Shown here: positions 25,444-58,661 of the stretch, one piece after another | How the letters are laid out: each line of letters opens with the position of its first letter | How positions within the stretch are numbered: position 1 is the first letter of the stretch | Assembly (NCBI GenBank): GCA_965246755.1 | Contig: OZ251979.1 | Location: 385,970-449,969, forward strand | DNA: 64,000 nt | From: Alphaproteobacteria bacterium | GTDB lineage: Bacteria; Pseudomonadota; Alphaproteobacteria; UBA11073 | Direction of reading: 5' to 3' | Notes under the pieces: model-generated | Database searches by the model: none | Told to the model about the DNA's origin: nothing | Seen by the model: the letters and a program-made list of their open reading frames with translations, nothing else | Position numbers and translations under genes: made by a program

Positions 25444-26397
25444 ATGACCTTGCGCGCAACCATTTTCGGCGGCAGCGGCTTTGTCGGCCGCACTATCGTA
25501 CAGCGGCTGGCGCGTCAGGGTTATGTCATCCGCATTGCCACGCGCAACCCGCAACATGTGCTGTTGGAAAAGACCAGCGGCACAGTGGGCCAGATTGTGC
25601 CTTTTGCCTGTCAGCCCACCGATACGGCGTCGGTCGCGCGCGCGGTAGAGGGCGCTGATTTGGTGATCAATCTTATCGGCACGTTATACGACAGAGGCAA
25701 ACACGGGTTTGATGAAACACATGTGCAAACGGCTGAACGCATTGCCGATGCCGCGCGTGTTGCCGGTGCCGCGCGCTTGCTGCATATGTCAGCCTTGGGT
25801 GCGGATGCCAATGCGCTGTCTAAATATGCGCGCAGTAAGGCAGCTGGCGAAGTCGCAGTACGCAAAGCCTTTCCAACTGTGACGATTTTCCGCCCATCAA
25901 TTATCTTTGGCGCCGGGGACAGCTTTTTCACGCGTTTCGCGCATTTGGGGCAACTGCTGCATTTTTTGCCGCTGATTGGCGGCGGCCGCACCAAATTCCA
26001 GCCAGTTTATGTCGGTGATGTCGCCGATGCCTTTATCAATGCTGCAGCAGATGAAGAGACCAGCGGTCGAACTTACACACTGGTTGGCCCCGGCATTTAT
26101 AGCTTTAAGCAATTATTTGAAACAATGTTGAAAATCACCGGTCAAAGTGTGCGGCTGGTCAATCTGCCCTGGGGTCTTGCGTCATTACAGGCGACGCTGA
26201 TGGAACTGTTACCGCGGCCGATGTTAACGCGTGACCAGGTCGAGAGTTTAAAAACCGATAATATTGCGCCCGCCGGCGCGCCAGGGTTGCAGGAACTCAG
26301 CCTCATGCCAACCGCGCTAGAGGCGATTTTGCCAACCTATTTATCCGCTTGGCAAAACGGCGGCGCTTTCGCCCACATTACGAAGCGCACGGCATGA
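25444..26397 (+). CDS. NAD(P)-binding SDR, complex I NDUFA9-like
   Basis: IFGGSGFVGR Rossmann motif, 317 aa, resembling the alphaproteobacterial NDUFA9-like family. Confidence 0.8.
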   Translation: MTLRATIFGGSGFVGRTIVQRLARQGYVIRIATRNPQHVLLEKTSGTVGQIVPFACQPTDTASVARAVEGADLVINLIGTLYDRGKHGFDETHVQTAERIADAARVAGAARLLHMSALGADANALSKYARSKAAGEVAVRKAFPTVTIFRPSIIFGAGDSFFTRFAHLGQLLHFLPLIGGGRTKFQPVYVGDVADAFINAAADEETSGRTYTLVGPGIYSFKQLFETMLKITGQSVRLVNLPWGLASLQATLMELLPRPMLTRDQVESLKTDNIAPAGAPGLQELSLMPTALEAILPTYLSAWQNGGAFAHITKRTA

Positions 26398-27314
26398 TGC
26401 GTATATCCGGCGCACTGATAATGCGCATATCCGGCGCACTGATAAAGTACATATCTGGTGCACTAGTGATACGTATTGTTGTCAGCGTGTTGACAACGCT
26501 ATGGCTGCTGCAACAACCGGCACTGGCCGCCGGGCCGGATTGGAAAGATTACGGCGCGCTGCAAAAAATTCACGACCTTGGCTATGAAATTACTTTTCTT
26601 GGCAACCAAGATAATTATCAAGGTTGGTTGGCGCAAAAACCGCTGCCGGACGGTCAAATGGATGCTCGAACCTTTTACACGCGCGCCGGCCAGCAAATTG
26701 TCTTAAGCGGTTTGTTGTTTAACAACAACGGCGATAATCTGACCGGTCAGCAGCTGCAAACTGCGCTACAAAACGGCACCATAAAAACAGTCCAGTCGGC
26801 GCCTGCGTCAGCCGTTGCACCACCGGCAGTTACGGCAACCAATAATCATGGCGCACAATTGTATAATGAACTGGGCGCGGCACATACTATCGATTTTGGC
26901 AATAATCCCAAGCTGCCGACACTTTACGCCTTTGTCGATCCGAATTGCCCTTACTGCAAAAAATTCTGGCAGGCGGTTGATATCGCGCAAGGTGCGGGTT
27001 TGAAATTTAACGTTAAGCTCATCGCAGTTGGTATTTTAGGTGATAATAGCGAGGCGCTGGCAGCAGCTATTCTGGCCGCGCCAGACAGCGCCGCGGCCTG
27101 GCGTGCCAATGCAGCTGGCCGGCCGCCCACGTTAATCAGCAATGCGCCGGCGCAAAAAATGGTTAGTGACAACGAAAACATCATGCTGCGCTGGGGGATG
27201 ACCAGCGTGCCGTTTATCGTTTACCGCACACCAACGCATGATGTTAAAATTGTGCGCGGCAATCCAACTGATGTCACCGGCTTGTTGGTCGATTTGGGCG
27301 TTGGTTCCAAATAG
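26394..27314 (+). CDS. Periplasmic thiol:disulfide interchange protein (DsbC/DsbG/TrbB-like), first gene of the pilus-like cluster
   Basis: Thioredoxin-fold active site DPNCPYCKKFW and a signal-peptide-like LWLLQQPALAAG. The ATG at 26394 overlaps the upstream stop (ATGA). The N-terminus is an MRISGALI octapeptide repeated three times. Confidence 0.75.
   Translation: MMRISGALIMRISGALIKYISGALVIRIVVSVLTTLWLLQQPALAAGPDWKDYGALQKIHDLGYEITFLGNQDNYQGWLAQKPLPDGQMDARTFYTRAGQQIVLSGLLFNNNGDNLTGQQLQTALQNGTIKTVQSAPASAVAPPAVTATNNHGAQLYNELGAAHTIDFGNNPKLPTLYAFVDPNCPYCKKFWQAVDIAQGAGLKFNVKLIAVGILGDNSEALAAAILAAPDSAAAWRANAAGRPPTLISNAPAQKMVSDNENIMLRWGMTSVPFIVYRTPTHDVKIVRGNPTDVTGLLVDLGVGSK
26398..26469. repeat. 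In-frame 24-bp tandem repeat x3 (third copy degenerate)
   Basis: ATGCGTATATCCGGCGCACTGATA / ATGCGCATATCCGGCGCACTGATA / AAGTACATATCTGGTGCACTAGTG. The first two units each begin with an in-frame ATG. Confidence 0.9.
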
Positions 27315-27404
27315 CGCGCGCTATGATATGCGTTACGTTTCGTCATTGCCGCGCCCTGGCACTCTATGGGACATTGAAGATGAATGTGAGATGATTCGGG
27401 GGAA

Positions 27405-27911
27405 ATGTTGCATTGCATGATGGGTAGGTTTTACCATCTTTGTCTGTGGATGATTATAACAGTTTTATTAACTGGGCCATCGCTTGCGCAGGATAGTGCT
27501 GCAGTACCCGCGGCAGTCGCCCCAACGGCGGGATCCGCAGTCATAAGCGCGCCAGACGCCGCTAAGCCAGCGGCACCTGCCACTGCGGACAAACCATTGG
27601 AAAATGTGATTACCAATCCGTTTGTATCCGGCGGTGTCGTCGGCAGCGGCCAGGTCATTACACGCGATGAGGTATTAAAGTTGATTGCCGATATGGAAAA
27701 ACGTGTCAAAGCGGATGTCACCCAAGGCATCGATGCCACGCAAGTAAATAGGTTAATCGCGCAGGCGACCACTGCGTCCAACGGGGCGGGCGGCGCCAAT
27801 AATTTTATCGGCTGTGTTAACGGCGTGCCGCTGTACCGCGCCAAGGACGGCTCGCTCAGTTTCGGCGCTGATGAACCGGGCGAACTGCGTTTGTTACGGT
27901 GCCGTAAATAA
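27405..27911 (+). CDS. Secreted protein of the pilus-like cluster (PilM-position; function unknown)
   Basis: Signal peptide ...LLTGPSLAQD, an Ala/Pro-rich linker, and a C-terminal Cys pair (CVNG...LLRCRK). The stop overlaps the secretin start (TAATG). Confidence 0.55.
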   Translation: MLHCMMGRFYHLCLWMIITVLLTGPSLAQDSAAVPAAVAPTAGSAVISAPDAAKPAAPATADKPLENVITNPFVSGGVVGSGQVITRDEVLKLIADMEKRVKADVTQGIDATQVNRLIAQATTASNGAGGANNFIGCVNGVPLYRAKDGSLSFGADEPGELRLLRCRK

Positions 27912-29938
27912 TGAGTGTTAAGCGCAACATGTTGACAAGATTTATCATGGCCTGTGGCATCGTCTTGCTGGTTGGCGGCTGCGGCACCGATGAACCGGAC
28001 TTCCGTGATTTTAAGCACAGCGATGTAACCAGCCCGTTCAACAAGGACGATCAGTGGGCAAAAGTGCCGGCCCTACGCCGCATTCCCGTCAGTTCCGATT
28101 TATTTTTGGCGCGTTCGGTCAGGCCAGCCATGCCGGAACGCATCGCTAGTAAACGGATCAGCTTGCGGCTTACCAAAGGCAATGCCACGATTGCGGATTT
28201 GATTGGCATTATGGATTACGAAGGTATTGCGGTAATTGCCCGGCCGGTCGGCAGTTCGGGCGCGGCGGATGAATTGAATGATATCGTGCTGCCGTTCCGG
28301 CGGTTTGACGGCACACTGGGCGGTCTCGCCACTAAATTATCACGGTCGCTGGATGTCGCGGTCTGGTGGGAAAATGATGCGCTAATGATCTCGGACCGTG
28401 ATCGTTACATTGTTTCGGTGCCGCAAAACCAGGATGTGATTGACAGCGTGGTTGGCGAACTGGAGGATTTCGGCGCCGAGGATGTGACGCCGTCGCTATA
28501 CGGCGGACGTATCGTTTACAATGCCCGTCCGCAACTGAACGACGAAGTGATTAAGTCATACTTAAGCGGCCTGGCCGGTAACTTGGCGGAAATCACCATT
28601 CAGCTGGCGGTTATTCAATTGAACTTGACCAAAGACGCCGAACGCGGTTTTGACTGGAGTTCATTCCAGCTGCAGTTTGGCAATCCCGCCAACGCGCCTA
28701 CTGGTGCATTAATTAAAGGCGGTGGCCTGGGCAGTGCGACGGGCTTGTCCGGCGCATTGTCATCAACGTCGCGTGCGGCGGGTTCAGGTGTAATTGGCGG
28801 TACTTACACGACAACAGTTGGTGATAATAATGTTTTGGGCGTGGGCGGCGCCATTTATTACCTCAGCCAGTTTGGGCGCACAACGACCCGCCAAATGGTT
28901 GAATTGCGCACTTTAGCCGGTATGCCGGTGCAATTGCGCAGCGGCCGCTCTACGCCGTATATTAAATCAATTGGTGCCACGACCACGCCGGGTTCAGCGG
29001 GCAGCGGCAATGTCACGTCGTCAACCGATACGGATACGGTTAAAACCGGCCTTACACTTAGCCTGACGCCTTATTATGACTCAATGATGGGTCTTGTTAT
29101 TATCGACGTGAACATTGAAATTGCTTCCATCACGCGTTTTGTGGTGTTGAATACGGCACCGGTCGCCAGTACCACCAGTGGTTCGACCAGCGGGACCTCT
29201 GGCACAACGGGCACCACCGGAACGACCAACAATGCCACCGCCACTAACAATGCGTCGCTCAGCCAGCCGGAAACCCAGTCAAATATCCTAACCGACATCG
29301 CGCGGGTGCCGGCGGGTGATGTGGTTATTTTGGGCGGTGTGCGCGAGGAGACCGCTAGCGATAACCGCACCGCGCCGTTTGGTGAATATGAGAGCATCGG
29401 CTCCAAAAAAACTAGCAATGAAAATACGTTGATTTTCTTCATCTTGCGCCCGGTCGTGACAATCTACGAACCGACTGGCGCTGCTGTCGCGGCGACTTTG
29501 CCAGGCGCGCCGGTCGAAACGATTGAACGGGCTGGCCAGCGCGGCAGCAAAACCGGTGCAGTCGAACAAATTCGCGATTTGGATGCGGTGCCAGAATTGT
29601 CGGCAGAAGATGCCGCAATTATTGAACCGCCCGCCTCAGGCACTGCTAAAAATACGCGTCCCAAATCCGCCCGCCGTGACATAAAGCCGGATGCCGTGCT
29701 GTCAACCCGCGCTGCTGCGGATGATGAGGAAGGTCAGGCGGCAGCCACCGAACCAGCCGTTAAATTAGTGGCACCACCACCAGTGTCGCCCCCGTTACGC
29801 GCTGTTGCGCCAAGTGAGGCCGCAGCGCCAGTAGATACTGCACCACCCCCGGCACCAGCGCCGATGGCGGGAGCCGATCTTAATGATGTTTTATCGGGTG
29901 GTTTTGGCGGCACGACTGGCGTGCTGTCCAATGAATAG
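27911..29938 (+). CDS. Lipoprotein secretin, type IVb pilus PilN/BfpB/TcpC-like
   Basis: Lipobox LLVGGCG. Secretin C-domain pattern: TLAGMPVQLRSGRSTPY, VKTGLTLSLTPYYD..GLVIIDVNIEIASI, VPAGDVVILGGVREE, TLIFFILRPVV. It also has a Thr/Ser/Gly-rich insert and a ~160-aa Pro/Ala-rich C-terminal tail. Confidence 0.8.
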   Translation: MSVKRNMLTRFIMACGIVLLVGGCGTDEPDFRDFKHSDVTSPFNKDDQWAKVPALRRIPVSSDLFLARSVRPAMPERIASKRISLRLTKGNATIADLIGIMDYEGIAVIARPVGSSGAADELNDIVLPFRRFDGTLGGLATKLSRSLDVAVWWENDALMISDRDRYIVSVPQNQDVIDSVVGELEDFGAEDVTPSLYGGRIVYNARPQLNDEVIKSYLSGLAGNLAEITIQLAVIQLNLTKDAERGFDWSSFQLQFGNPANAPTGALIKGGGLGSATGLSGALSSTSRAAGSGVIGGTYTTTVGDNNVLGVGGAIYYLSQFGRTTTRQMVELRTLAGMPVQLRSGRSTPYIKSIGATTTPGSAGSGNVTSSTDTDTVKTGLTLSLTPYYDSMMGLVIIDVNIEIASITRFVVLNTAPVASTTSGSTSGTSGTTGTTGTTNNATATNNASLSQPETQSNILTDIARVPAGDVVILGGVREETASDNRTAPFGEYESIGSKKTSNENTLIFFILRPVVTIYEPTGAAVAATLPGAPVETIERAGQRGSKTGAVEQIRDLDAVPELSAEDAAIIEPPASGTAKNTRPKSARRDIKPDAVLSTRAAADDEEGQAAATEPAVKLVAPPPVSPPLRAVAPSEAAAPVDTAPPPAPAPMAGADLNDVLSGGFGGTTGVLSNE

Positions 29939-29950
29939 GGACTGTTAGGC

Positions 29951-30769
29951 ATGGCGGCGCTGGTACCACCCAACCGTATTGTCATCGATTTTCTGGAAGG
30001 CATTACCAGTAAAAGCGATGCAGTGGCTTATGCGCGCGGTTTTATTCTCAGTCATTTCGACGTGCCGTCAGAATCCGGTTATTATGTGCATGCGTTTCAA
30101 GGCGGCTATGCCTATGAAGTTCATGAAGGCGGTTCGCGCCGGGCCTTTCTGCCGCGCATTTTAAAAATTATCCAAGATACGCCGGGCGCGATTGTGTCGG
30201 TGCGTTCCGGCAGTCGCGTGTTGCAAGTCTCGCGCGGCCCCCGCGACAGTTTCAACGCCGTGCTATTGCCCGAAGAGTTATCATCCTATTTGGAAAATGT
30301 GATTGAGCCAGATGAAAATGCGCCGCATCTTGTTGCCTATCAATTGGCCGGTACGGTATGGCTATTTATCGGCAGCTGTGTTGCGGTATTAGGCGGCCTG
30401 ATTATGCTGATTGGCCTATTGTCATTTGCCCTCTCAAAGGTAACCGGCCCGGCGCAAATTGTGACCACTCCGGCTGAACAATTGCCGTTTGCGCAGTGGC
30501 AAAATTTGGTCCAGAAAGTCGCTCCGGAAAATCACGTTGCGGCTTTAAAATTTGACGGCAAGAACTGGCAGATTGATGTTGCCCCTAATCCGTCACCAGT
30601 CACGGCAGCGCCAGTTACAAATGTCTTGTCAATGATGCCGGTGTCACCATTGGGTGCCGCGCAATTGCCAGCTGTGATGCCTGCTATTGGACCCCTAACC
30701 GCACCGGCACAGGCACCCGCGCCGCCGCCGCCAAGCGGCACACCGCCGCAAGCGGGAATAACTCCATGA
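29951..30769 (+). CDS. Bitopic membrane protein (PilO-position assembly component?)
   Basis: One central TM helix (VWLFIGSCVAVLGGLIMLIGLLSFAL) and a Pro-rich C-terminus. It has an ATGA overlap with the next gene. Confidence 0.5.
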   Translation: MAALVPPNRIVIDFLEGITSKSDAVAYARGFILSHFDVPSESGYYVHAFQGGYAYEVHEGGSRRAFLPRILKIIQDTPGAIVSVRSGSRVLQVSRGPRDSFNAVLLPEELSSYLENVIEPDENAPHLVAYQLAGTVWLFIGSCVAVLGGLIMLIGLLSFALSKVTGPAQIVTTPAEQLPFAQWQNLVQKVAPENHVAALKFDGKNWQIDVAPNPSPVTAAPVTNVLSMMPVSPLGAAQLPAVMPAIGPLTAPAQAPAPPPPSGTPPQAGITP

Positions 30770-31167
30770 AATTTGAGTTGCCCGAATTATCGCTGTCGTC
30801 ATTGCCGGTATCACCGCAACAATACCGATTGGCAGGCAGTATTATGTTGGGTATCGGCGTGTTTTGTTTAGTAGCGGGATTGATATTCATTTTTTTAACC
30901 AGAGCGCAAAATCATGGTGGCGGCAGCAAATTGGATATTTCCAGCAAAGAGTGTGTTTTAAAACTGCAAAAGCTTGGTTTTAACCCCCAGGCGGAGCATG
31001 ATTTGTTACGCGTTAACAAAGAAGGTTTGATCAATGGAATGGCGCTGCTTGCCCAAAGTTCGCAGGCAACCTCGCTGTGTCCCAATTGGGCGCTGCAAAA
31101 TTATTGTTTAGGAGAAACCTGTGCCATCAAAGGTGTTAGTTTCACTCTGAAATATACCAAAAAATAA
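30766..31167 (+). CDS. Small bitopic membrane protein (PilP-position)
   Basis: One TM helix (IMLGIGVFCLVAGLIFIFL) and a periplasmic domain with 4 Cys. Confidence 0.5.
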   Translation: MKFELPELSLSSLPVSPQQYRLAGSIMLGIGVFCLVAGLIFIFLTRAQNHGGGSKLDISSKECVLKLQKLGFNPQAEHDLLRVNKEGLINGMALLAQSSQATSLCPNWALQNYCLGETCAIKGVSFTLKYTKK

Positions 31168-31185
31168 TCTTTTGGGTGAGCATGC

Positions 31186-31458
31186 ATGCTGCCGTTGCTG
31201 AAATTTGGACAGTGGAGTGAAAAAAACCACGCGCATTTGCGGGTGTTCGATCTATTGTGTGCCGCCGGCATGTTGGGGTGGGGTGCCTATGCCCACAGCC
31301 GCAGCTGGCTCGCCTGCGGCAGCCTGGTCTTGCTAATCGTTTGGTATGATCCGTTGCCGCGCTTGCGCCGTTGGTTGCCGCAGGTGGTTGCGGCCAAGGC
31401 GAAACAACAGCAAGCACGGGGTGCCCCACCACGTCAAAATGGGCGCCGCAGCCCATGA
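31186..31458 (+). CDS. Small membrane protein
   Basis: Two hydrophobic segments and a basic C-terminus. Its stop overlaps the ATG at 31455 (ATGA), supporting both gene calls. Confidence 0.45.
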   Translation: MLPLLKFGQWSEKNHAHLRVFDLLCAAGMLGWGAYAHSRSWLACGSLVLLIVWYDPLPRLRRWLPQVVAAKAKQQQARGAPPRQNGRRSP

Positions 31459-33218
31459 TGAATGTGCTGATTATTTTAGTAATGGTGGTGGTGGTGGCGT
31501 TCAGCGCCGTATTCGCCGGCGTGACGTTTTTGCAAGGTGTGCGCAGCAGTGTTGAATTGCAAATCACCAAACAACGTTTATTGGAGGTTGCGAGTGCCAT
31601 TCAAACTCAGGCCCGTTATATTAATGGCGTTTATGCCTTACCGGCCGGAACCCAGGGCGCCGCGCCATCACCTTACCTTTATAACCAAGTGCCAGGTTGG
31701 ATTACGACCAACGCTAAATCCGCCCATGGCGTACCCTTTGTCTATTGTCCTTATGCAGCGGTGACCGGTGTCAATAACGCCACCATTTATGCACCGTCTG
31801 GGGGCAGCTATGGGGTGCAAACGGCCAGCAATGACACAACAGCAGGCCAGCCCTATGTTATCGCCAGCGCGCCCGCGCCCACGGCAATAACCGCGGTTGG
31901 TGCCACCGGTGTTTTAATTGCCGCCGCGCCGCAAAATTATAATCCGCCGGATTGTTCATCAATTACTGCTGCAGCAATTGACGCGACAACGCCGCTTGTC
32001 AGCGGCGGTGTCGTCATGCCGATCGGCGATAATTATTTAAATAAAATGCAAACCGGCACTGTGACATCGGAGTTATCTTATTATATTGGTGATGTGGCCA
32101 GTGGCGCCACTGGCGATTTAAGCGGCCGTGATCCTAGCAACCTCGCTACTTTAAGCGCGATTTTAACTGCTATCGAAGCTGCCAAGCCATCGTCAGCCTA
32201 TATAATTTTCCCCAGCGCTGCCGCAACCTATGATATTTCCGGCAACGCGACAGTCTCTACATCTTTGAACAACATATTGGTCAATGGTACACGATTGGGC
32301 TTTATGGTGGCCGGCGCCGGCTATCAAGCAACGGCAATTTTTAAATTTGGCAGTGGCACGATTCCGGAAGGCAATCATATTGGTATCAGAAACATGACCT
32401 TGCAATCGACCGGCACGCTGGAAGTACGCGGTCAGCTGGATATGGATAACGATGCGACGATCAAGGTGGGAAATGCGCTTTACATTAACGGCGGCACGGT
32501 AGTGTCCAGTACCTCCAATAACAGTATAATTGACGGTAATGTAACGATCGATGGCGGTGGTCGGCTGCAAAGCGCGCGGGGTTATGTCGTTGTTGTCAAC
32601 AATATCACCAACCGTGGCTTTAAAATTTTAAATGGGGCTTTTGATGGTTACACTATTAGCATTAACACTGCTGCCGGCAATGGTTTCACGCCGCTTTTAA
32701 TTGGTGCGGGTGGCGCGTTGCGCGGCGGTTATGTATATATAACCACGTCGAACGGCGGCGGTGCCATTGTTGAACCGGGCGGGTTGCTATTCGAGCAAGG
32801 CGGCACCCTACAAATTTATTATGCGTCGCTTTATGGCATTTATTTACATGGGCGTTTGAATGTCAATCCGGGCTTGTCCATTCCCACTCAAGGCGCGGGC
32901 GGTTTGCAATATGGTCTGATTTTGGCGAGCGGCGCCAAGGCCTATACTCCGGGCCCTTGTTTGGTTTGCGATGGTTATAATCCCATGGTGGGGATTTACG
33001 ATGCGGGCGGCTTCAGCATCGATAACGAAATGAACACCGGCGGCACCGTCTATGCGGGCACCAAATGCTGGCAGGGCAACAGCGGTTTTAATCTGTTTAG
33101 TGACAATAATGACAATGGCACCACGTTAAACGCTTATGGCTATACAAAAAATACCGCTGGTCTCGAATGGCTGCGTTTATATAATTCGAGCATTTTTCAA
33201 TGCCAGGGCATCCCATAA
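31455..33218 (+). CDS. Paralog 1: N-terminal pilin-like hydrophobic helix plus beta-helix-like repeat protein
   Basis: N-terminus MMNVLIILVMVVVVAFSAVFAGV. Motif QVPGWITTN..GVPFVYCPYA is shared with the next two genes. YYIGDVASGATGDLSGRDPSNLATL resembles the entry motif of right-handed beta-helix domains. It is G/N/T-rich with ~20-25 aa periodicity, and the C-terminus is ..SIFQCQGIP. Confidence 0.65.
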   Translation: MMNVLIILVMVVVVAFSAVFAGVTFLQGVRSSVELQITKQRLLEVASAIQTQARYINGVYALPAGTQGAAPSPYLYNQVPGWITTNAKSAHGVPFVYCPYAAVTGVNNATIYAPSGGSYGVQTASNDTTAGQPYVIASAPAPTAITAVGATGVLIAAAPQNYNPPDCSSITAAAIDATTPLVSGGVVMPIGDNYLNKMQTGTVTSELSYYIGDVASGATGDLSGRDPSNLATLSAILTAIEAAKPSSAYIIFPSAAATYDISGNATVSTSLNNILVNGTRLGFMVAGAGYQATAIFKFGSGTIPEGNHIGIRNMTLQSTGTLEVRGQLDMDNDATIKVGNALYINGGTVVSSTSNNSIIDGNVTIDGGGRLQSARGYVVVVNNITNRGFKILNGAFDGYTISINTAAGNGFTPLLIGAGGALRGGYVYITTSNGGGAIVEPGGLLFEQGGTLQIYYASLYGIYLHGRLNVNPGLSIPTQGAGGLQYGLILASGAKAYTPGPCLVCDGYNPMVGIYDAGGFSIDNEMNTGGTVYAGTKCWQGNSGFNLFSDNNDNGTTLNAYGYTKNTAGLEWLRLYNSSIFQCQGIP

Positions 33219-35081
33219 ATGACCGGTTTGATCATTATCCTGATCTTATTGGTCGCGGTTCTGGGCGGCGCCGGTTACGCGGTGGTCAGCAGCGGCACCA
33301 CCCTGCAAGCCACCATCGATAAAAATGAAAATATGGCGCGGTTGGAAACCGCTGCTCAAACCGTGCTGACCAATATAGTTTCGGTAACTTCCGGCAGTGC
33401 GCAATATTATGCTGTGCCTATGCCCGACAGTAATACCAGTCCTGCGGTGCCAACCTGGCTGCTGCCAACCGCACGTACTGTGGATGGCACGGCTTTTCTC
33501 TATTGCCCGTTCAGCAACGCCACCAGCGGTACCAAAGCCACCGCGATTACCACCCCCGGTGGCACCTATAATGTGAACAGTACTACACTTTACAGCGGCT
33601 CGCAAAATTATGTGACAATTTCAGATGCCCGGCCTGCCAACGCTCCCACCGCCCTGGTCATTTTGGTCGCGCCGGCTGCCAAAAACGCCATAGTGCCGGA
33701 TTGTCAAAACATCAACGCGGATTTGACATTGGCCGGCGCCACAGTGCGCGTGATTACCGAAGCTGAAGTGGAAGCGCGCCGTCTGGTGAATGCCAGCAAT
33801 GGCAGTGAAATCTACACTGCGCCCGCCACTACTGGCGATGGCAGCGGACGTAACGCCGCCAATGCCATGCCGCTGGATACCGCGCTGACTTATTATAATT
33901 ATTACCGGCCACAGCATCAAAAATTGAATCTTAGCGGCGGCAGCTACACCGTTACTAATGCGATCACCAGTTTTTTTGGCACCAATGCCACCACGGCGAA
34001 CGGCTGGCCTAATATGTCTGTACGCAACAGTTCACTCAATTTAACCGGTGCAGGGGCCAATGCGGCCATCCCAACCCAAATCAGTGGCGTGACATCGCCT
34101 TATAATCCGCTATTCCCCGCTAACCTAAGTGTAAAAAATCTGGCCATCTTGCGGCCAAACGGCGCCTATATCTATCCGCAACTCAGCGCGTTTCAAAACT
34201 ATAAACTGGTGTTAGACAGCGCCACAATTCCTTATTTTAATAATCTGGATGGCCGCGGCTATCTGTTTAATGCGGTCGGTTTGACGGGACAAACCTCGTA
34301 CAACAACGGCAGCGTTTATGACGGCAGTAATTTTTTTGCCGGTTCGCGCACTTACATAAATGCGGTGGTCAGCCTACCGGCCTCTGACAGCTATTACACC
34401 TGGGCCCTGGGTAATGCCGGCGGTGAGCTGTTTTTAGGGCAGCAAGATATTTTAAACGGCATCGGCACTTATGGCTATCAATTCATAAGGAATATTTACG
34501 GTGCACGCACCTATATATCCGGTATCTTAAATAATGTTGGCACCACCTTGGGCAGCCAATTTATAATCTCTTATTTTGGGTCGCAAAATTACCTTAGCAA
34601 CGTGGTCTTCAATGCCGCTGAAATATATGTAAATGGTAACATTTATATAAATGGTACCGCGTCAGCTACATTTTTTGATACGGCGACTATTAACATCACA
34701 GGTTTTGACAAACCGGCCACGGCCTTGGTGGCCGGACATGCGGAAATATTTGGGATCACCAATTCAGTTGTCGGCTCCATCAGCGACTCCAATTCGCGCG
34801 CGACCAACTTGGCCCTTACGGTGGATAGCAACGCCGCTGCCGGCACCCGGCAGATTGTGGGCGGCGCCAACGGTGGGTGGGCTCAATCAATATTAACCTC
34901 GGCCAATACCGCCTGTTGGAGCGCCACTTCCGTGGGGGGAACCTACCAATCAACCTATTATATTTTGAATGACACCAATTTTAACACGAATACCAACTAT
35001 TCATTACCGCTGGGCAGCAGCACCGCTAACGCGCCGCTGTTGGTCGCCAACCGTTCCAACTGGCAGTGTTTGCATCCATGA
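33219..35081 (+). CDS. Paralog 2: N-terminal pilin-like hydrophobic helix plus beta-helix-like repeat protein
   Basis: N-terminus MTGLIIILILLVAVLGGAGYAVV, followed by AVPTWLLPTARTVDGTAFLYCPFS, IYTAPATTGDGSGRNAANAMPLDTAL, and a C-terminal RSNWQCLHP. Its ATG directly abuts the upstream TAA. Confidence 0.65.
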   Translation: MTGLIIILILLVAVLGGAGYAVVSSGTTLQATIDKNENMARLETAAQTVLTNIVSVTSGSAQYYAVPMPDSNTSPAVPTWLLPTARTVDGTAFLYCPFSNATSGTKATAITTPGGTYNVNSTTLYSGSQNYVTISDARPANAPTALVILVAPAAKNAIVPDCQNINADLTLAGATVRVITEAEVEARRLVNASNGSEIYTAPATTGDGSGRNAANAMPLDTALTYYNYYRPQHQKLNLSGGSYTVTNAITSFFGTNATTANGWPNMSVRNSSLNLTGAGANAAIPTQISGVTSPYNPLFPANLSVKNLAILRPNGAYIYPQLSAFQNYKLVLDSATIPYFNNLDGRGYLFNAVGLTGQTSYNNGSVYDGSNFFAGSRTYINAVVSLPASDSYYTWALGNAGGELFLGQQDILNGIGTYGYQFIRNIYGARTYISGILNNVGTTLGSQFIISYFGSQNYLSNVVFNAAEIYVNGNIYINGTASATFFDTATINITGFDKPATALVAGHAEIFGITNSVVGSISDSNSRATNLALTVDSNAAAGTRQIVGGANGGWAQSILTSANTACWSATSVGGTYQSTYYILNDTNFNTNTNYSLPLGSSTANAPLLVANRSNWQCLHP

Positions 35082-44396: not shown

Positions 44397-45526
44397 CAGT
44401 TTCAGCAGCGGCGACAGACCTTACCTGGCCGGCGGAACCGCAGCGGCTGCATGAAGAGGATATCGATAGCCTGTTGTTGTGGTGTGTGGCTGAGCGTGCC
44501 TCTGACGTCTCAATTCAAACTGATCGTCCGGTGTTTATTGAAGTGGATGGCGAACTGCGGCCCGCGATGCGCCGCCACATTGATGCGGCGGATATGGCGG
44601 CGGTTTTAACCAAACTTTATGGGCCAGAGGCGTCGGCCCAGCTGGCGGCGGGGCACGATCTCGACCTGTCCTATGAGATTCGCCCTGACCGTTTCACGCG
44701 GCACCGTTTTCGGGTCAATATTACCGCGATTTTAAGCCGCGGCCGCGATGCCGCGCAAATTACCATGCGCGCTTTGCCCAATATCCCGCCGTCGATGACG
44801 GATTTGAATATTGAACCACAGATTATCGATAACTGGGCGCCGCGCCAGGGGATTATCCTGGTCACTGGCCCGACCGGCAGCGGGAAATCCACACTGCTGG
44901 CCGCTGGCAATCGCATGATGATTGAACGCCCGGAAGGTTGCGGCAAATTGCTAACCTATGAAGCGCCTATCGAATATGTTTATGACGCGATAACTTCCAA
45001 TCGCTCGCTCGTTGCGCAAACTGAAATTCCGCGGCATTTGCCGACTTTTGCGGCTGGGGTACGCAATGCCTTGCGCCGCAAACCCAATATCATCCTAGTG
45101 GGCGAGGTCAGGGACCGCGAAACGGTGTCAGCGGCAGTTGAAGCCGGGCAAACCGGCCATGCAGTTTATGCAACCGTGCATACCACGGGGGTCGCCGCGA
45201 CCGTACGCCGTGTGATGTCCATGTTTGATTCGTCGGAACGTACCGAGCGCGGTTACGCGCTAATGGAAACGCTGCGCATGATTGTGACCCAAGCCTTGGT
45301 GCCGCGGCCAGACGGTGGCCGAATCGGTATTCGTGAATGGATGGTATTCAGTGATGATGTGCGTGAACGCCTGCTCGACATGGATTCACAAAACTGGGCC
45401 TCTGAAATTCAGCGCCTTGTGCCGCAACATGGCCAGTCGATGACGACCAGCGCCCAGGCGGCGCTTGATGCAGGGCACATCGACAAGCGATGGTTTACGC
45501 TGCTATCAAAATCAGTGGGGCACTAA
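44393..45526 (+). CDS. dotB: DotB/TraJ-like PilT-family hexameric ATPase
   Basis: 377 aa, with ASDVSIQTDRPVFIEV, Walker A GPTGSGKSTLLA, EIPRHLPTFAAGVRNALRRKPNIILVGEVRD and TGHAVYATVHT. It has an ATGA overlap with the dotC-like gene. Confidence 0.85.
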   Translation: MTVSAAATDLTWPAEPQRLHEEDIDSLLLWCVAERASDVSIQTDRPVFIEVDGELRPAMRRHIDAADMAAVLTKLYGPEASAQLAAGHDLDLSYEIRPDRFTRHRFRVNITAILSRGRDAAQITMRALPNIPPSMTDLNIEPQIIDNWAPRQGIILVTGPTGSGKSTLLAAGNRMMIERPEGCGKLLTYEAPIEYVYDAITSNRSLVAQTEIPRHLPTFAAGVRNALRRKPNIILVGEVRDRETVSAAVEAGQTGHAVYATVHTTGVAATVRRVMSMFDSSERTERGYALMETLRMIVTQALVPRPDGGRIGIREWMVFSDDVRERLLDMDSQNWASEIQRLVPQHGQSMTTSAQAALDAGHIDKRWFTLLSKSVGH

Positions 45527-45528
45527 CG

Positions 45529-45879
45529 ATGGATTTACATTGGCGTAACACCATGAAACCAGCGCGTTTTTTCGCGGTTGATGCACGCTCGGCCATCGCT
45601 ATCCTGTTGGTCCTGGTGCATGCGCGTTACTATACTTTTGCCATTGCGATTATTGCGATGGTGGTTTTTTGGATTGTCGAACGGTTGGGCTACCGGTTTG
45701 AAGCGGCGTTGCGCGCGCTCCGCAACTGGTTTGTGGCGCCCGATCGGCCGGCCATTCCGCTTAATTTACGGCGGACCATGACTGATTTATCGCGCCGCCC
45801 ACCGGTTGAGCTAAGTGTCAGCGGCACAAAAGCACGCAAAGTCGACGGACAAGCGGCTGGACAAATGCATCGCAAATAA
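45529..45879 (+). CDS. icmT: IcmT/TraK-like small membrane protein
   Basis: MDLHWRNTMKPARFFAVDARSAIAILLVLVHARYYTF matches the IcmT/TraK signature (HWR..PRFF.vDa...). It follows the dotB-like gene, as traK follows traJ in IncI plasmids. Confidence 0.7.
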   Translation: MDLHWRNTMKPARFFAVDARSAIAILLVLVHARYYTFAIAIIAMVVFWIVERLGYRFEAALRALRNWFVAPDRPAIPLNLRRTMTDLSRRPPVELSVSGTKARKVDGQAAGQMHRK

Positions 45880-45944
45880 TTAGACATAACTATACCAGAA
45901 TTGCTTTTATGGTGTTCTGATTCTCTTTCATTCAGGTGTGCAGT

Positions 45945-47156
45945 ATGACGTTTCAAAAATTTTTGTTAACCACCGTGATGCTAACATCGTTTGGTGTCGC
46001 ACCGGCTTGGGCTGGCTTTACCTTAATCAATCCCGCTGCGCAAACGGGCACGGTGACGACAATCACCCCCGATCGGACGGTAACTGAAACAACCATTATT
46101 GATGGCGCGACCGCGCCGATCGAAACAATGCCGATTGTTTCGCAACCCTTGGCTACGCCGTCCGGTACAACCAAAACCACCGTGCAAACATTGGCGGCGC
46201 CACCTATGCCGATGCCGTCACGTGTATCATCACCTGTCTTCGCATCCGCCGCCCAGGCCGTGCGCGGCTTTGGCCGGGATATTCCTTTGATCATCGCGGC
46301 CAAGCAAATCGCACCTGAGGATGCGCAGATTGCGCTGGCCAATGGCGTTAATCCGCAGCAACCAATCTCGTGGCAAAGCGGCGCTGACTGGCATACTGTT
46401 TTAAACACTGCCTTGGCGGCCAAAAACCTGTCCGCAACCATTCAGGGTAATGTTGTGGTGATTGGCCCTAATGGCGGCGAACCTGTTATGCCCATGATTG
46501 CACAGCCTGTGTCAATGCCGGTGCCGGCGAGCGGCATGCTAAAAGATAACTTTAATTCGCCGCGTGATGCCGCCACACCGGTTGTGGAGCGCGTGGTGAA
46601 AACACCGGCATCACCAATGCCGGTCCCAGCCAGTATGAGTTTAGGACGCAAAACCGCTCCGCTGGTTGAAACAAAAACCGTGGTGACTATGGCACCTACG
46701 GTTATGGGGGATACATTGCCGCCCGCTGTTGATCAGCCGTTACCGCTGACCAGTGCCATGGATGCACCTGGCACCGTCACCACAGTTGCCGTGTCTCAAC
46801 CATCGGCAATGCCGCTGTCATCAACGGCCAATGTGACAATGCTGCCTGACACAGCTGGGGCCATGGGCGGTACCTTGGAAATTTGGAAGGCGAAAAGCGG
46901 CACTATGCTGCATGAAACTTTAACCGACTGGACTAAACGCGCTGGTGTTACGCTGCGGTGGGATACCGAATATGATTATCCGCTGCAAACGGCGGTCTCA
47001 ATTGATGGTGATTTTGAAGGCGCGGTGCGTACACTGTTGCGCGGCTTCGGCAGCGCCCAGCCACAGCCGGTGGCTAAACTTTATCGCGGTAAAGATGTGC
47101 CGTCGGTTTTATTGGTCACTCAGCGCGGCAATAATCTGGCAACAGTTAAAGAATAA
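45945..47156 (+). CDS. TcpQ / PilL-like periplasmic protein (putative secretin-associated factor)
   Basis: Signal peptide ...GVAPAWA. The mid domain is GFGRDIPLIIAAKQIAPE...ISWQSGADWHTVLNTAL. The C-terminal LEIWKAKSGTMLHETLTDWTKRAGVTLRWDTEYDYPLQTAVSIDGDFEGAVRTLL fits the TcpQ C-terminal domain pattern. Confidence 0.6.
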   Translation: MTFQKFLLTTVMLTSFGVAPAWAGFTLINPAAQTGTVTTITPDRTVTETTIIDGATAPIETMPIVSQPLATPSGTTKTTVQTLAAPPMPMPSRVSSPVFASAAQAVRGFGRDIPLIIAAKQIAPEDAQIALANGVNPQQPISWQSGADWHTVLNTALAAKNLSATIQGNVVVIGPNGGEPVMPMIAQPVSMPVPASGMLKDNFNSPRDAATPVVERVVKTPASPMPVPASMSLGRKTAPLVETKTVVTMAPTVMGDTLPPAVDQPLPLTSAMDAPGTVTTVAVSQPSAMPLSSTANVTMLPDTAGAMGGTLEIWKAKSGTMLHETLTDWTKRAGVTLRWDTEYDYPLQTAVSIDGDFEGAVRTLLRGFGSAQPQPVAKLYRGKDVPSVLLVTQRGNNLATVKE

Positions 47157-50917: not shown

Positions 50918-52390
50918 TCAGGGGGTTTTTTTAATCATGAGTTGTGCGGCAAACGGTGCAGTACTCTTTAAAAACGCGGCGATGGATGGCCAACAAGCAG
51001 CATCATGCGCTGATAAATCCAGATTTAAAAAACCGCCGCGGCGGATGACACGCAATGCTTCCTTGACTGCATATTGCAACAATGGCGGCGGGCAGCGTGC
51101 AGCATCGTACCAAACTTGATCAAACTGCGCGTCTTCGGACGGTATGTTAAAAATATTACCAGCGTGTTGCCGGTAAGGCAGCGCGGTCGGATTATGTATA
51201 TTTTCCAATCGGTCGGCAAAATGAATGACTGTGGTGCCTGCGGCCAGCCGAGCTGCCAAAATCAGGTTGTTAAAAACTGCCACCACCTGTTCCGGTGGCA
51301 CGATTATTTTTACATCAGATATTAGCGGGCTTACCTGATAGGTTTCTAAATTGGGAGTTTGCAATGCATCGCGCAAGCTGTTGCAGACCAGACGCGGTGA
51401 CAGACTGGCCATACATTCTGGCGGCGTAAGGCCGCGTAGGCAATTTTCCATCCAGTCATTTTTTATCCACCAGCAATTCGCACAAAGGTCGCTAATCAGA
51501 TTTTTATGGCGCGCATAGCCAAAAAATTTGGCATTGGTGGGACCGATTAAACAAATCGTCGGCGTATGCAAAGCACGTGTGAAATGCACAAGGCCGGATT
51601 CCGTGTCAATGTGGTGCGCGCTGTGTTTCAATACTACCAACGCTTCGGCAATCGAAATTTTACCACGTAAATCCAGATCAACGCCATCGACAGTCTGGCC
51701 ATTTTTTAACGAGCCTAATTGCACAATGCGCAAATGGGGATAATCCGTTTTAACTAGCCGCACGAATTCCTGCCAATAGGGCAATAGCCATACTTTGGTC
51801 GGACGCGTTGCGGCAGGCAGCGGCACGCTGGCATCCCAGCCGTCATGAATGGTAATATAATCTGCTGCCGCCAGCTCATATTTATCCAGCACATCAAAAC
51901 TGTCCGGTCGCAAATGCAGAATTGGCGTAGTGTCCCGGTGTTCTAATCCCGCGCTGTACAGCGGCAAGCTGCGCCGATCGAGCCCCCAAAAAACCGCATG
52001 ATTGGCCAATTGATTGTTCAGATGCGGTTGCGCCTGGCCGGGAAGGCCAAATTCTTCAAGGCGGGTCTGGCCGCGCGCCGCCAGTCTTATGAGTTGCGGC
52101 GCCAATTCCGCCAGCTCCGGTTTTAAATCATACAACACCAATTCATCGATACGGATGAGGCCTTGATAGGTTTCCGCAAAGGCCGTCCAAGCGTCTGGCG
52201 GCATGATGGCATTAATAAATGGCGCCTGATAATACAAATCACGCAGCAGTTCTGCTGGCTGCGCTGCAAACAAATCAAACTTTTGTCCGGTGATTTCATG
52301 TAAGGCGTAAAGATAAGGGGTGGCGACCAGCATGTCTCCCAAGCCGCCGCTGAAATAAAGGGCCAAATTATAGTGCGCGGGCGCAGCCAT
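50918..52390 (-). CDS. Glycosyltransferase family 9 (heptosyltransferase-like) protein with C-terminal extension
   Basis: GGLGDMLVATPYLYAL N-terminal motif, GPTNAKFFGY, and an extra C-terminal ~130 aa. Confidence 0.5.
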   Translation of the reverse strand: MAAPAHYNLALYFSGGLGDMLVATPYLYALHEITGQKFDLFAAQPAELLRDLYYQAPFINAIMPPDAWTAFAETYQGLIRIDELVLYDLKPELAELAPQLIRLAARGQTRLEEFGLPGQAQPHLNNQLANHAVFWGLDRRSLPLYSAGLEHRDTTPILHLRPDSFDVLDKYELAAADYITIHDGWDASVPLPAATRPTKVWLLPYWQEFVRLVKTDYPHLRIVQLGSLKNGQTVDGVDLDLRGKISIAEALVVLKHSAHHIDTESGLVHFTRALHTPTICLIGPTNAKFFGYARHKNLISDLCANCWWIKNDWMENCLRGLTPPECMASLSPRLVCNSLRDALQTPNLETYQVSPLISDVKIIVPPEQVVAVFNNLILAARLAAGTTVIHFADRLENIHNPTALPYRQHAGNIFNIPSEDAQFDQVWYDAARCPPPLLQYAVKEALRVIRRGGFLNLDLSAHDAACWPSIAAFLKSTAPFAAQLMIKKTP

Positions 52391-52392
52391 GT

Positions 52393-53706
52393 TTAATCAA
52401 ACCAGGCCTGAATGGTGTTGAAATCAAACGGCAGCTTTCGCATCATCCAGGGTTGCGGGGACAGGCAAATCAACCCTGTAAAAACCGCACCGGGCGGCGG
52501 TTGTATAACCAAAGGTGACGGGCCATCCCAGCTGCCGGTTACCATAATTGGTATCATGTGCGCGTTGGGATTTACCAGCGCGATTTGCTGAACTGTGTCA
52601 CCCAAGGTGACGGTTAACAAATTATTGGCATCATCTTGCGTCAAAAATAATGCGATCAGTGGTGCGCCGTTAACCGGCACCACCAGCCGTGCCTCATCAC
52701 CCGCCACCGCGCTGAACGGGCCGTAGTGCTGTTGCCATTTCGACCGCCAGATGCCTTGGAATGCGTCAGTTACTGCCGCCGCTAGCTGATGCGGAAAAAT
52801 CAGCCAGCCGTTTTCGGACGGATGAAAATGAAATTGGTTTAAATAATTAATCGGCGATGGCGTACTGTCAAACGCCTCACGCAATCGGGCTTGCAGTGTT
52901 GCGAAATTTAATGGCGCAATTTTAATTTTATTAGCGGGTGTCAAATCATTAAAGGTCATGCCCAACACGGCAGGGTCGATCACTGTCGCTTTGGGCGTGA
53001 CCAATCCTAACGATGCAAAGCCATGCCGCATCAAGGCGATATCATACCACCAGTCTGCAGATTGCCAGCTGGCCTGCGCCAGGTCAGGCTGGACGGATGC
53101 ATGTTCCCAATGGCCGCTGACATCGGTGTCCGACATATCATGGGCGGTTTGCCAGATATCCTGCAACGTACCCGTCATATAATTTTGTAAAACCACTTGC
53201 GCCGCAGTGCGTGATAACAACAACATACCGGCGCCAATATTGAACATGATAGCATAATCATTGTGTAATCCTAACACACGCTCAGTGTAGGTACGCGCAG
53301 AGACGCTGCCGACCGTAAGACCATCAGCGGCGCCTTTGGCAAACAGCGCGAACATCGCGTCAAACCAGCCCGGCGCCAGCAGCACGTCATTTTCAATTAA
53401 GCCAACATAATCGTAACCCTGGGCCAGCGCATAGGTTAGGCCATATGTAATTGCGGCATCCGGGCCGCCCACGACGCCGCTATGAATTTCTTTTAATTGT
53501 GGTGTCGTGGCCAGATAGTTAAAGGGCAGCTGTTGTCCCGCCGCAGTTTTACTGCCGTCGCACCAAATAATATCAAACCCGGATGCTGCTGTGACTGCGG
53601 GAAAGGTTTGCTGGGTAAATTCTATACGGTCCTTAGTGCTATAGACAAACGCCACGTTGTTGCGCGGCGTGTCATAGGCCCTATGGATCGCGGCAGGATA
53701 GGGCAT
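52393..53706 (-). CDS. Putative GT-A fold glycosyltransferase
   Basis: VAFVYSTKDRIEF...IIWCDGS...GLIENDVLLAPGWFD (DxD-like). Confidence 0.4.
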   Translation of the reverse strand: MPYPAAIHRAYDTPRNNVAFVYSTKDRIEFTQQTFPAVTAASGFDIIWCDGSKTAAGQQLPFNYLATTPQLKEIHSGVVGGPDAAITYGLTYALAQGYDYVGLIENDVLLAPGWFDAMFALFAKGAADGLTVGSVSARTYTERVLGLHNDYAIMFNIGAGMLLLSRTAAQVVLQNYMTGTLQDIWQTAHDMSDTDVSGHWEHASVQPDLAQASWQSADWWYDIALMRHGFASLGLVTPKATVIDPAVLGMTFNDLTPANKIKIAPLNFATLQARLREAFDSTPSPINYLNQFHFHPSENGWLIFPHQLAAAVTDAFQGIWRSKWQQHYGPFSAVAGDEARLVVPVNGAPLIALFLTQDDANNLLTVTLGDTVQQIALVNPNAHMIPIMVTGSWDGPSPLVIQPPPGAVFTGLICLSPQPWMMRKLPFDFNTIQAWFD

Positions 53707-54744: not shown

Positions 54745-54874
54745 CACAATGTTAAAGATTCGGGTCCATGATACGCGGTGCGTAAAGCAAGTAAAGCCGC
54801 AGCCAGCTTCAACGGCTGTTGCATTGACCTGTCTTGAGTCCCTTCGTACCATTCCGTTGGTAAAGGATGTCACA

Positions 54875-58577: not shown

Positions 58578-58661
58578 GCCCCCGTGGTGGAATGGTAGAC
58601 GCGGTAGACTCAAAATCTATTGCCGCAAGGCGTGGGGGTTCAAGTCCCTCCGGGGGCACCA
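58578..58661 (+). tRNA. tRNA-Leu (anticodon CAA), encoded CCA
   Basis: Acceptor stem GCCCCCG/CGGGGGC, anticodon loop CUCAAAA, long variable arm, T-arm GGGGGTTCAAGTCCCTC, and terminal ACCA. Confidence 0.9.

Follow-up and report, generated by a model that had tools for sequence, protein, structure and literature searches.

The 64-kb stretch of DNA analysed here (the window) comes from an alphaproteobacterial genome and carries, at positions 26394–47156, a cluster that combines genes of a pilus-like apparatus with genes of a Dot/Icm-type type IVB secretion system (T4BSS). According to the list of open reading frames (ORFs) and their translations, the cluster comprises 18 ORFs, all on one strand (+). 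A sequence-only reading of this DNA had described 19 translationally coupled genes encoding one chimeric machine. The common direction and the overlaps it listed stand (4-nt ATGA overlaps at 26394, 30766, 31455, 35078 and 44393; 1-nt overlaps at 27911, 41262, 41768 and 43518), but the count is 18, and the partner of the overlap at 26394 is an unrelated NAD-dependent epimerase gene (25444–26397). Same-strand gene overlaps are ordinary operon structure, and it is the gene content, not the overlaps, that makes the cluster non-trivial. As argued below, this is probably not one hybrid machine; rather, a rare pilus-like apparatus is inserted in a standard Dot/Icm block of a Micavibrio-like bacterium. 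The unusual part of the cluster is this insert of about 15.5 kb (27405–42937), which lies between dsb and dotD.

The Dot block consists of a dsb gene on one side of the insert and of dotD, dotC, dotB, icmT and a tcpQ/pilL-family gene on the other. Profile hidden Markov models (HMMs) identify a DotD/TraH-like outer-membrane lipoprotein (42985–43518; PF16816, 89 bits; NF033882, 77 bits, short of its cutoff of 140), a DotC/TraI-like T4BSS outer-membrane core protein (43518–44396; PF16932, 248 bits), a DotB/TraJ-type T4BSS ATPase (44393–45526; TIGR02524, 402 bits, just under the equivalog cutoff of 463; TraJ 242 bits, PilT family 220 bits) and a small membrane protein of the IcmT/TraK family (45490–45879; NF038220, 84.5 bits, above the cutoff of 40). 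Together, these four make up the set that marks Dot/Icm-type T4BSSs. The last gene of the block encodes a TcpQ/PilL-family protein (45936–47156; PF10671, 55 bits; STN, 22 bits, below its cutoff). DotC and IcmT are 54% and 47% identical to their counterparts in Micavibrio aeruginosavorus, and DotB is 68% identical to a Micavibrio protein; the named relatives of DotC are M. aeruginosavorus and metagenome-assembled genomes (MAGs) labelled as uncultured “Rhodospirillaceae/Alphaproteobacteria”, at 47–71% identity. The DotC signal peptide has no lipobox cysteine. Although icmT is annotated from 45490, the IcmT/TraK model aligns only from residue 18 of that long form onward, and a start at 45529, 2 nt past the dotB stop codon, is more probable. 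Upstream of the insert, a DsbC/DsbG-like periplasmic thiol:disulfide oxidoreductase (26394–27314) matched Thioredoxin_2 with 35 bits and the DsbG model NF008657 with 116 bits, below the cutoff of 124; its gene belongs to the conserved Dot block and not to the insert. Its start is uncertain because the annotated 5′ end holds a 24-bp tandem repeat (26385–26464; 3.3 copies, two exact 19-mers) that reads MRISGALI repeatedly; the gene may in truth begin further downstream, or the repeat may be an element for regulation or slippage. The names that had been given to DsbC/G, the secretin, the SpeE-like protein, GspE, GspF and TcpQ are supported by HMMs, and the assignments of DotC, DotD, DotB and IcmT were upheld by PF16932, PF16816, TIGR02524 and NF038220, respectively.

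We scanned a DotC alignment against one genome per species and found relatives in 304 genomes, of which the best 80 are all Micavibrio-like. Synteny at these best 80 of 304 loci was determined by tblastn, counting for each gene only those loci that were long enough. The consensus block reads (Dsb)-333-aa protein-lytic transglycosylase (SLT)-(Dsb)-DotD-DotC-DotB-IcmT-TcpQ: DotD is present at 78 of 80 loci, DotB at all 67 of 67, IcmT at 55 of 60 and TcpQ, placed after IcmT, at 39 of 57, while upstream there is an SLT at 53 of 62 loci and a Dsb gene, at most 4.5 kb from DotC, at 39 of 56. The order is identical to that in the window, and the block is conserved whether or not pilus genes adjoin. 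Between dsb and dotD, most relatives have only the 333-aa protein and the SLT, where the window has its module of about 15.5 kb.

In M. aeruginosavorus ARL-13 (CP002382; our locus L002, with L009 as an identical contig), four opposite-strand genes separate the block from a second Dot/Icm run about 6 kb off, for which the window has no equivalent. This run encodes DotI/IcmL, DotH/IcmK, a DotG/IcmE-like, a DotF/IcmG-like and a TraQ-like protein, a 132-aa protein, IcmJ/DotN and a 1049-aa protein. The gene order in Legionella is icmL-K-E-G-C-D-J-B, and the Micavibrio run is collinear with it. The 1049-aa protein had no HMM match; its position and size would suit IcmB/DotO. The closest cultured relative thus has the further Dot/Icm set that would speak against a chimeric machine. 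DotI/H/G/F partners lie within 10 kb of the block in 5 of 52 relatives. In Legionella, dotDCB is likewise an operon apart from the other dot/icm regions. With the Dot/Icm systems of Legionella and Coxiella, the window shares the order DotD-DotC-DotB, a DotB that scores best on the Dot/Icm DotB model, and IcmT; it differs in being alphaproteobacterial, in the missing lipobox cysteine of DotC and in the adjoining pilus genes.

The Dot genes of the window are thus orthologous to a block that forms part of a complete chromosomal T4BSS in relatives, where the genes of the system are dispersed. By analogy, we consider it very probable that the remaining T4BSS genes are encoded elsewhere in this 1.93-Mb genome. 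A MacSyFinder survey reported Dot/Icm-type pT4SSi in seven marine Micavibrionales (PMC9418006), whereas the 2011 Micavibrio genome paper stated that evidence of a type IV secretion system was lacking (PMC3189940) and so overlooked the Dot/Icm system of M. aeruginosavorus. Apart from the mention of Micavibrionales in that survey, our literature search returned no paper that names Micavibrio with a T4BSS, and no functional study of the M. aeruginosavorus system.

The insert contains the core of a type IV filament machine, namely a GspE/PilB-type ATPase, a GspF/PilC-type platform and a secretin, all recognized by HMMs. The ATPase (39679–41262) matched T2SSE with 295 bits, GspE with 290 bits and PilB with 280 bits; it has a tetracysteine motif (CxxC…CxxC) and a weakly MshEN-like N-terminus, and among solved structures in the PDB it scored 240 bits against GspE, 220 against PilB and 88 against BfpD. 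The inner-membrane platform (41768–42937) matched T2SSF with 63 bits in two stretches, and nothing usable was found for it among PDB sequences. The secretin (27911–29938; PF00263, 35 bits), a predicted outer-membrane channel of 675 aa, carries a lipobox-like LVGGC that could be read off its sequence; its best NCBIfam model was MshL (TIGR02519, 48 bits, far below cutoff), and it has no sequence relative in the PDB. The module has no retraction ATPase, and no dedicated prepilin peptidase is encoded in the cluster or the window. Searches of the 18 proteins against Pfam and NCBIfam gave no match to GspC, GspL, GspM or GspG–K, and the cluster proteins gave none to the PilM/N/O/P families. The likeness to type II secretion systems (T2SSs), type IVa pili and mannose-sensitive hemagglutinin (MSHA) pili lies in an ATPase nearest to GspE and PilB with its tetracysteine motif, a platform with two T2SSF repeats, the weak MshL match of the secretin and the order secretin…ATPase…platform. 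The window differs from these systems in candidate subunits without a class III signal peptide, in the absence of a prepilin peptidase gene and of GspC/L/M or PilM/N/O/P matches, and in the presence of three giant proteins and a membrane-bound SpeE-like enzyme.

Five further insert genes encode proteins other than the candidate subunits. The first gene of the insert (27405–27911) encodes a 168-aa secreted protein with two C-terminal cysteines and no match in Pfam or NCBIfam. Behind the secretin gene follow three genes for membrane proteins without family matches. A bitopic protein of 272 aa (29951–30769), with a cytoplasmic N-domain, one transmembrane segment and a Pro-rich tail, is by its position a candidate accessory of the assembly platform. 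Next come a cysteine-containing bitopic protein of 133 aa (30766–31167) and a 90-aa protein with two transmembrane segments (31186–31458), both accessory; their orthologs on metagenomic contig L091 are 47% identical, at the same position, and 26% identical, respectively. The fifth gene (38071–39627) encodes a polytopic membrane protein with a C-terminal domain of the spermidine-synthase/S-adenosylmethionine (SAM) methyltransferase fold (PF01564, 40.5 bits; PRK03612, 95 bits against a cutoff of 472). Its soluble domain is a distant relative of aminopropyltransferases at most: the best PDB match was 41 bits, with catechol O-methyltransferases at 21 bits. Aminopropyltransferases have the motif GGG[D/E]G, whereas this protein has GLGCG, which in light of the general properties of the fold suggests SAM rather than decarboxylated SAM chemistry. 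Its gene has a GC content of 0.43, compared with 0.50–0.56 around it. We considered a recent foreign insertion, which is weakened by an ortholog in the same place in L091 (45% identical), although contigs L005 and L094 have none at that place; the SpeE-like protein is a variable accessory part of the module.

The candidate subunits of the apparatus are four: a 168-aa pilin-like protein with two conserved cysteines in its family alignment (41262–41768), which is the candidate major subunit, and three giant proteins of 587 aa (31455–33218), 620 aa (33219–35081) and 973 aa (35078–37999). The giants are true paralogs (blastp E values 1e-19 to 4e-46, the latter between the first and the third). The first has a leaderless pilin-like N-terminal module, beginning MMNVLIILVMVV…, and a C-terminal β-rich domain; its L091 ortholog is 42% identical. 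The third, for which ortholog segments in L005 and L091 are 47–57% identical, has the same architecture with two repeated Cys-rich modules added at the C-terminus. Both families are very rare: we found only 70 representative clusters of the giant family among 1.84 billion, and only 11 relatives of the small subunit among 5.8 billion clustered proteins. All giants and small subunits start with M-x-x, M-x-x-L in the small subunits, followed by about 20 hydrophobic residues. No charged residue occurs within the first 22 aa in 65 of 66 giants and 11 of 11 small subunits, none of the 77 has a Glu at positions 5–8, and there is no conserved Gly. The four candidate subunits thus lack the class III signal peptide, a leader that ends in Gly or Ala and is usually followed by Glu5. 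In the ORFs at 33219 and 41262 no leader can have been missed, since the earliest start codon that follows the preceding stop is the one already used and neither ORF can extend upstream. Elsewhere in the window, 335–1933 on the minus strand encodes a canonical 532-aa prepilin (…QRA/FTLIELAIVV…) that matches N_methyl (PF07963), so a prepilin peptidase is presumably encoded elsewhere in the genome.

As predicted by AlphaFold2, the 620-aa paralog begins with a helix of 50 residues, which is followed by a β-sheet and then by a right-handed parallel β-helix. The model, built from a 62-sequence alignment, has a mean predicted local distance difference test score (pLDDT) of 85.8 and a predicted TM-score of 0.78; the helix spans residues 2–51, eight strands extend to about residue 180 with pLDDT above 90, and a β-solenoid continues to the C-terminus. 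Foldseek matched the solenoid in the PDB to the AlgE4 epimerase, the tailspikes of phages Sf6, CBA120 and HK620, pectate lyases and depolymerases (best E 2e-3, probability up to 1.0), and in the viral library BFVD to proteins of the tailspike/pectate-lyase type (best E 9.5e-6). These models support the β-helix fold class but not a specific activity. Among 62 members of the giant family, Pfam gave one Beta_helix match and no N_methyl match, and PDB sequence searches with the profiles of both subunit families returned nothing usable. The GDGSG motif of the giants and their four conserved cysteines, of which two are invariant and two nearly so, would fit the β-helix picture and the presence of Dsb; in the small subunit, one cysteine is invariant and one nearly invariant. 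Aligned by hhalign, the small-subunit and giant families match over the N-terminal 34 residues only, with a probability of 64%. An alignment confined to the hydrophobic N-terminus is usual between pilin families.

In their predicted architecture, the giants resemble modular type IV pilins such as PilB and PilC of Streptococcus sanguinis, which join a pilin module, a long N-terminal helix with a β-sheet, to a large C-terminal module with a presumed role in adhesion or in the binding of glycans (PMC8179133, PMC9934059). They differ in that the S. sanguinis proteins have canonical leaders cut by prepilin peptidase and carry von Willebrand factor A or lectin modules, whereas the window proteins are leaderless and carry a parallel β-helix of about 400 residues, of the tailspike/pectate-lyase type. 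No paper describing leaderless pilins was found in our literature search.

A collinear module recurs in the MAG UBA11073 (L010) and on three metagenomic contigs (L005, L091 and L094), in the order small membrane proteins, three giants, with or without the SpeE-like protein, GspE, small subunit, GspF, DotD, DotC and DotB. By tblastn against L005, L010, L090 and L091 (L094 was not compared), identity to the window protein is 81–85% for GspE, 66–73% for GspF and 37–43% for the small subunit. Three more homologs of the small subunit (P0244, P0245 and P0248) may represent further copies, since the lengths of their longest contigs equal those for the DotC homologs P0016, P0008 and P0021, which suggests shared contigs. 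In 8 contigs of this sublineage, counting these length matches, dotD directly follows the filament genes after a gap of about 45 nt. A scan of the species-genome collection with the single protein GspF gave no match; the source genome and its close relatives lie outside this collection. The two modules are separable, since L090 has GspE, small subunit and GspF alone among housekeeping genes, while L003, L004 and L093 have DotD-C-B alone. Separately, contig L092 (9443–10954) carries distantly related small subunits (26% identity) in the form of three tandem genes encoding proteins of 150, 157 and 141 aa; these adjoin GGDEF and PilZN genes, and no ATPase, platform or Dot genes lie within 10 kb.

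A type IV pilus next to these Dot genes is in itself not new. The IncI1 plasmid record that we compared (L007) reads, on one strand, pilM…pilO-pilP-ATPase-platform-pilin-SLT-…-pilV-rci-traE…traH-traI-traJ-traK…DotI-DotH-TraO…DotA/TraY, where traH, traI, traJ and traK are equivalent to DotD, DotC, DotB and IcmT. Pilus genes upstream of DotD-C-B-IcmT are therefore the normal IncI1 layout. The window shares with IncI1 a set of secretin, ATPase, platform and pilin genes directly upstream of DotD-DotC-DotB-IcmT on one strand, and a TcpQ/PilL-family gene in the set. Of the 52 Micavibrio-like genomes whose sequence reaches far enough downstream, 24 have a gene for a GspE-family ATPase beyond tcpQ, at most 10 kb downstream of DotC. 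One such operon (L088, 3193–11400) encodes TcpQ, a secretin, PAP_PilO, a PilP-like protein of 187 aa, an ATPase, a platform and a PilS-type pilin with a normal leader; its ATPase matched IncI PilQ with E 1e-70 and its platform matched PilR with E 1e-41, and by these comparisons it is a genuine R64-type type IVb pilus operon. IncI-like synteny is kept on these Micavibrio-like chromosomes with no relaxase in view. From the IncI1 layout and the R64-type operons of the relatives, we infer that the pairing of a pilus with DotD-C-B-IcmT is ancestral to I-type systems. The idea that the cluster might be an evolutionary bridge between type IVb pili and T4BSSs thus falls away.

The insert itself is not of this kind. 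Its pilus-like genes lie between dsb and dotD and not downstream of tcpQ. The ATPase is 28% identical to that of L088 and 33% identical to IncI PilQ over a 290-aa core only, and the platform matched IncI PilR with E 0.002, so both are only remotely related to PilQ and PilR. Among the cluster proteins, Pfam and NCBIfam gave no match to PAP_PilO, PilS or N_methyl, and the pilin-like proteins are leaderless. We therefore rejected a relocated R64-type thin pilus on the ATPase, platform and pilin comparisons. The label of a type IVb pilus, given in the sequence-only reading, does not hold either: the ATPase is GspE/PilB-like, with BfpD far behind, and no match to Bundlin or PilS, which with TcpA are the pilins of such systems, was found. 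The type IVb-like traits of the cluster are the lipobox of the secretin and the TcpQ-family gene only; the TcpQ protein is 30% identical to the one that heads the R64-type operon of L088. Nor does the cluster appear to be part of an IncI-type conjugative element. It is chromosomal, with housekeeping genes on both sides by Pfam (XerC, DUF484, HemW, RdgB, RNase PH, RNase H and SspB on one flank, LysA and ArgH on the other), the window contains no oriT, shufflon/rci, PilU peptidase or PilT transglycosylase, and the whole cluster gave no megablast match to plasmids or E. coli genomes. Among the ORFs of the 64-kb window that were scanned, Pfam likewise detected no relaxase, prepilin peptidase or lytic transglycosylase, and tblastn with the Micavibrio SLT detected none of the last.

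We consider it somewhat more probable than otherwise that the cluster encodes parts of two separable machines, the Dot block of a chromosomal T4BSS and an inserted type-IV-filament-like module that likely serves T4BSS contact. In this reading, dsb (26394–27314) and dotD-dotC-dotB-icmT-tcpQ/pilL (42985–47156) would form the “region-I-like” block of a relaxase-less chromosomal I-type T4BSS, of a type characteristic of Micavibrio-like Alphaproteobacteria. DotD and DotC would contribute to the outer-membrane core and DotB would act as a cytoplasmic ATPase, while IcmT and the TcpQ-family protein would belong with the T4BSS; DotO, DotL, DotG, DotH, DotF, DotI and DotA would be expected elsewhere in the genome, as in Micavibrio and Legionella. 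The module would be a rare, divergent member of the type-IV-filament world that was inserted between dsb and dotD in this lineage. Its GspE-type ATPase and GspF platform would extract and polymerize the small subunit (41262–41768), and the fibre would pass the lipoprotein-like secretin. The three giants may be modular minor or tip subunits: their helix and sheet modules could enter the fibre, with the β-helix domains placed at the tip or surface, where they might bind or cut glycans of the target-cell surface. A prepilin peptidase would not be needed because none of the four subunits is synthesized with a class III leader, and the insert is apparently a rare, peptidase-independent variant of the type IV filament with tailspike-like modular subunits. 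More speculatively, the Dsb enzyme might form the conserved disulfides of the subunits, and, as pure speculation, the SpeE/methyltransferase-like enzyme might modify the unprocessed N-termini and so stand in for the methyltransferase part of a prepilin peptidase. The IncI thin pilus and the R64-type pil operon of the relatives offer an analogy, under which the fibre would most likely contact target cells for the T4BSS, and this role could explain why it is kept next to dotDCB. That it represents a new class of filament without a prepilin peptidase, with subunits “mature” at translation and a fibre tipped by three β-helix pilins, which replaces the R64-type pilus as the T4BSS contact device for attacking cells, is a more tentative proposal and one we regard as rather doubtful.

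Several observations weigh against this reading. Type IV pilin assembly is thought to need a leader and Glu5, and subunits lacking both contradict these needs; they may stay anchored in the membrane and not polymerize. The pilin fold of the giant N-terminal modules is suggested by the topology and secondary structure of the AlphaFold2 model, and with the whole model as Foldseek query the β-helix dominates the matches, with TM-scores of 0.2–0.33. For the small subunit, the prediction has a pLDDT of 53 (helices at residues 2–20 and 29–57, then strands) and its Foldseek matches are meaningless. Pfam and tblastn with Micavibrio DotI/H/G/F/N/O-like queries and the 333-aa proteins found no other Dot/Icm gene in the 64-kb window: IcmB/DotO and DotL are absent by Pfam and tblastn, and DotH/IcmK, DotG/IcmE, DotF/IcmG and DotI/IcmL by tblastn. 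This bears out the earlier statement that the window holds no further Dot/Icm gene, relaxase, prepilin peptidase or transglycosylase. None of the 120 listed of 1109 DotI matches comes from the source contig, a result that is uninformative rather than supportive. The lifestyle and taxonomy of the organism are derived from homologs, not from marker genes, and the close linkage of the filament genes to dotD in 8 contigs would also be expected of a shared machine.

Among the alternatives, a T2SS-like exporter seems to us unlikely, though it fares best. Here, the 168-aa small subunit would build a short pseudopilus in the periplasm and thereby drive the three β-helix proteins out through the secretin; these proteins would be polysaccharide-degrading enzymes, held at first by an N-terminal signal anchor and then released or displayed on the surface. 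Such a system would agree with an ATPase nearest to the GspE of T2SSs, with a secretin in a module that has no retraction ATPase, and with β-helix domains that resemble depolymerases and lyases; the Dsb enzyme of the cluster would suit disulfide-bonded exoproteins. However, T2SS substrates normally carry Sec or Tat signals, while the giants have the leaderless hydrophobic N-terminus in common with the small subunit (the hhalign match over residues 1–34), and the modelled N-terminus of the 620-aa paralog is a continuous 50-residue helix on a β-sheet, which is pilin-like and not a cleavable signal peptide. The lack of any match to GspC, L, M or G–K also speaks against an exporter.

Somewhat less probable still is mere neighbourhood, in which the filament module is functionally unrelated to the T4BSS, serves for example general adhesion, motility or DNA uptake, and reached its place by one ancestral insertion in a narrow clade. 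The window-type layout is rare, occurring in 1 of the 62 species genomes that reach far enough upstream, and all examples have a DotC 61–71% identical to the window protein and could go back to one event. The occurrence of the modules apart, in L090 and L003, and the 47-nt gap between gspF and dotD (42938–42984), which is not translational coupling, point the same way. Yet the gene order has survived while the pilin-like subunits drifted apart to 35–48% identity. The same Dot genes have also been joined independently by a type IV pilus operon in I-type systems and in many relatives, and this speaks for a functional cause. A promoter and terminator scan found terminator-like sites in the region at chance level and no convincing one between gspF and dotD; the best promoter-like site (43003–43031) lies inside dotD and is probably due to chance.

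A single chimeric apparatus, in which DotC and DotD, perhaps with TcpQ, serve the secretin as pilotin or outer-membrane partners, DotB is a second, retraction-type ATPase and the genome has no other Dot/Icm parts, is very improbable: it could draw on the absence of other Dot/Icm genes from the window, the filament genes directly upstream of dotD in the 8 contigs, a PilT-related DotB beside a module with no retraction ATPase of its own, and the reported likeness of the DotD fold to secretin N0 domains (PMC2951367), but it leaves IcmT without a place, DotB matches the DotB model best and has an ortholog in Micavibrio, DotD-C-B(-IcmT-TcpQ) is kept in genomes without the filament module, including the close relatives L003, L004 and L093, and in Micavibrio a Legionella-like core lies beside it, while L090 has the filament trio without Dot genes. 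This had been the proposal of the sequence-only reading, which saw an undescribed set of components with DotC/DotD serving the secretin; given that the Dot block is conserved with or without pilus genes, that the modules occur apart and that the IncI1 layout is classical, it is not sustained.

Two other regions of the window are worth recording. A tRNA-Leu(CAA) gene (58578–58661) is directly followed by a P4-type integrase gene (58815–60038), and from 58578 to the window end at 64000 the GC content is 0.42–0.46, with a second integrase-like gene at 61770–62846; a genomic island or a prophage that inserted at the tRNA gene is the probable explanation. On the minus strand, three consecutive genes (50918–55026) encode proteins of about 440–490 aa and may form a surface-glycan modification locus. 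Two of these proteins gave weak matches, to a heptosyltransferase (GT9) and to an RGP-type glycosyltransferase, respectively, and the third has no family.

For the question raised by the sequence-only reading, the useful outcome is negative: a pilus next to DotD-C-B-IcmT is ancestral synteny and no bridge. The insert nevertheless bears on how these filaments are defined. Type IV filaments are defined by pilins with a class III leader that is cut by a dedicated peptidase, and a machine of GspE, GspF and secretin whose candidate subunits are solely leaderless would test this definition. Pilin modules fused to tailspike-like β-helices suggest a fibre for penetrating or recognizing the glycan coat of another cell, and the position of the insert in the dotDCB block ties the module to the Dot/Icm-type system of Micavibrio-like bacteria. 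Since Micavibrio species are epibiotic predators, the genes of this cluster are candidates for parts of the apparatus with which Micavibrio attaches to and kills its prey.

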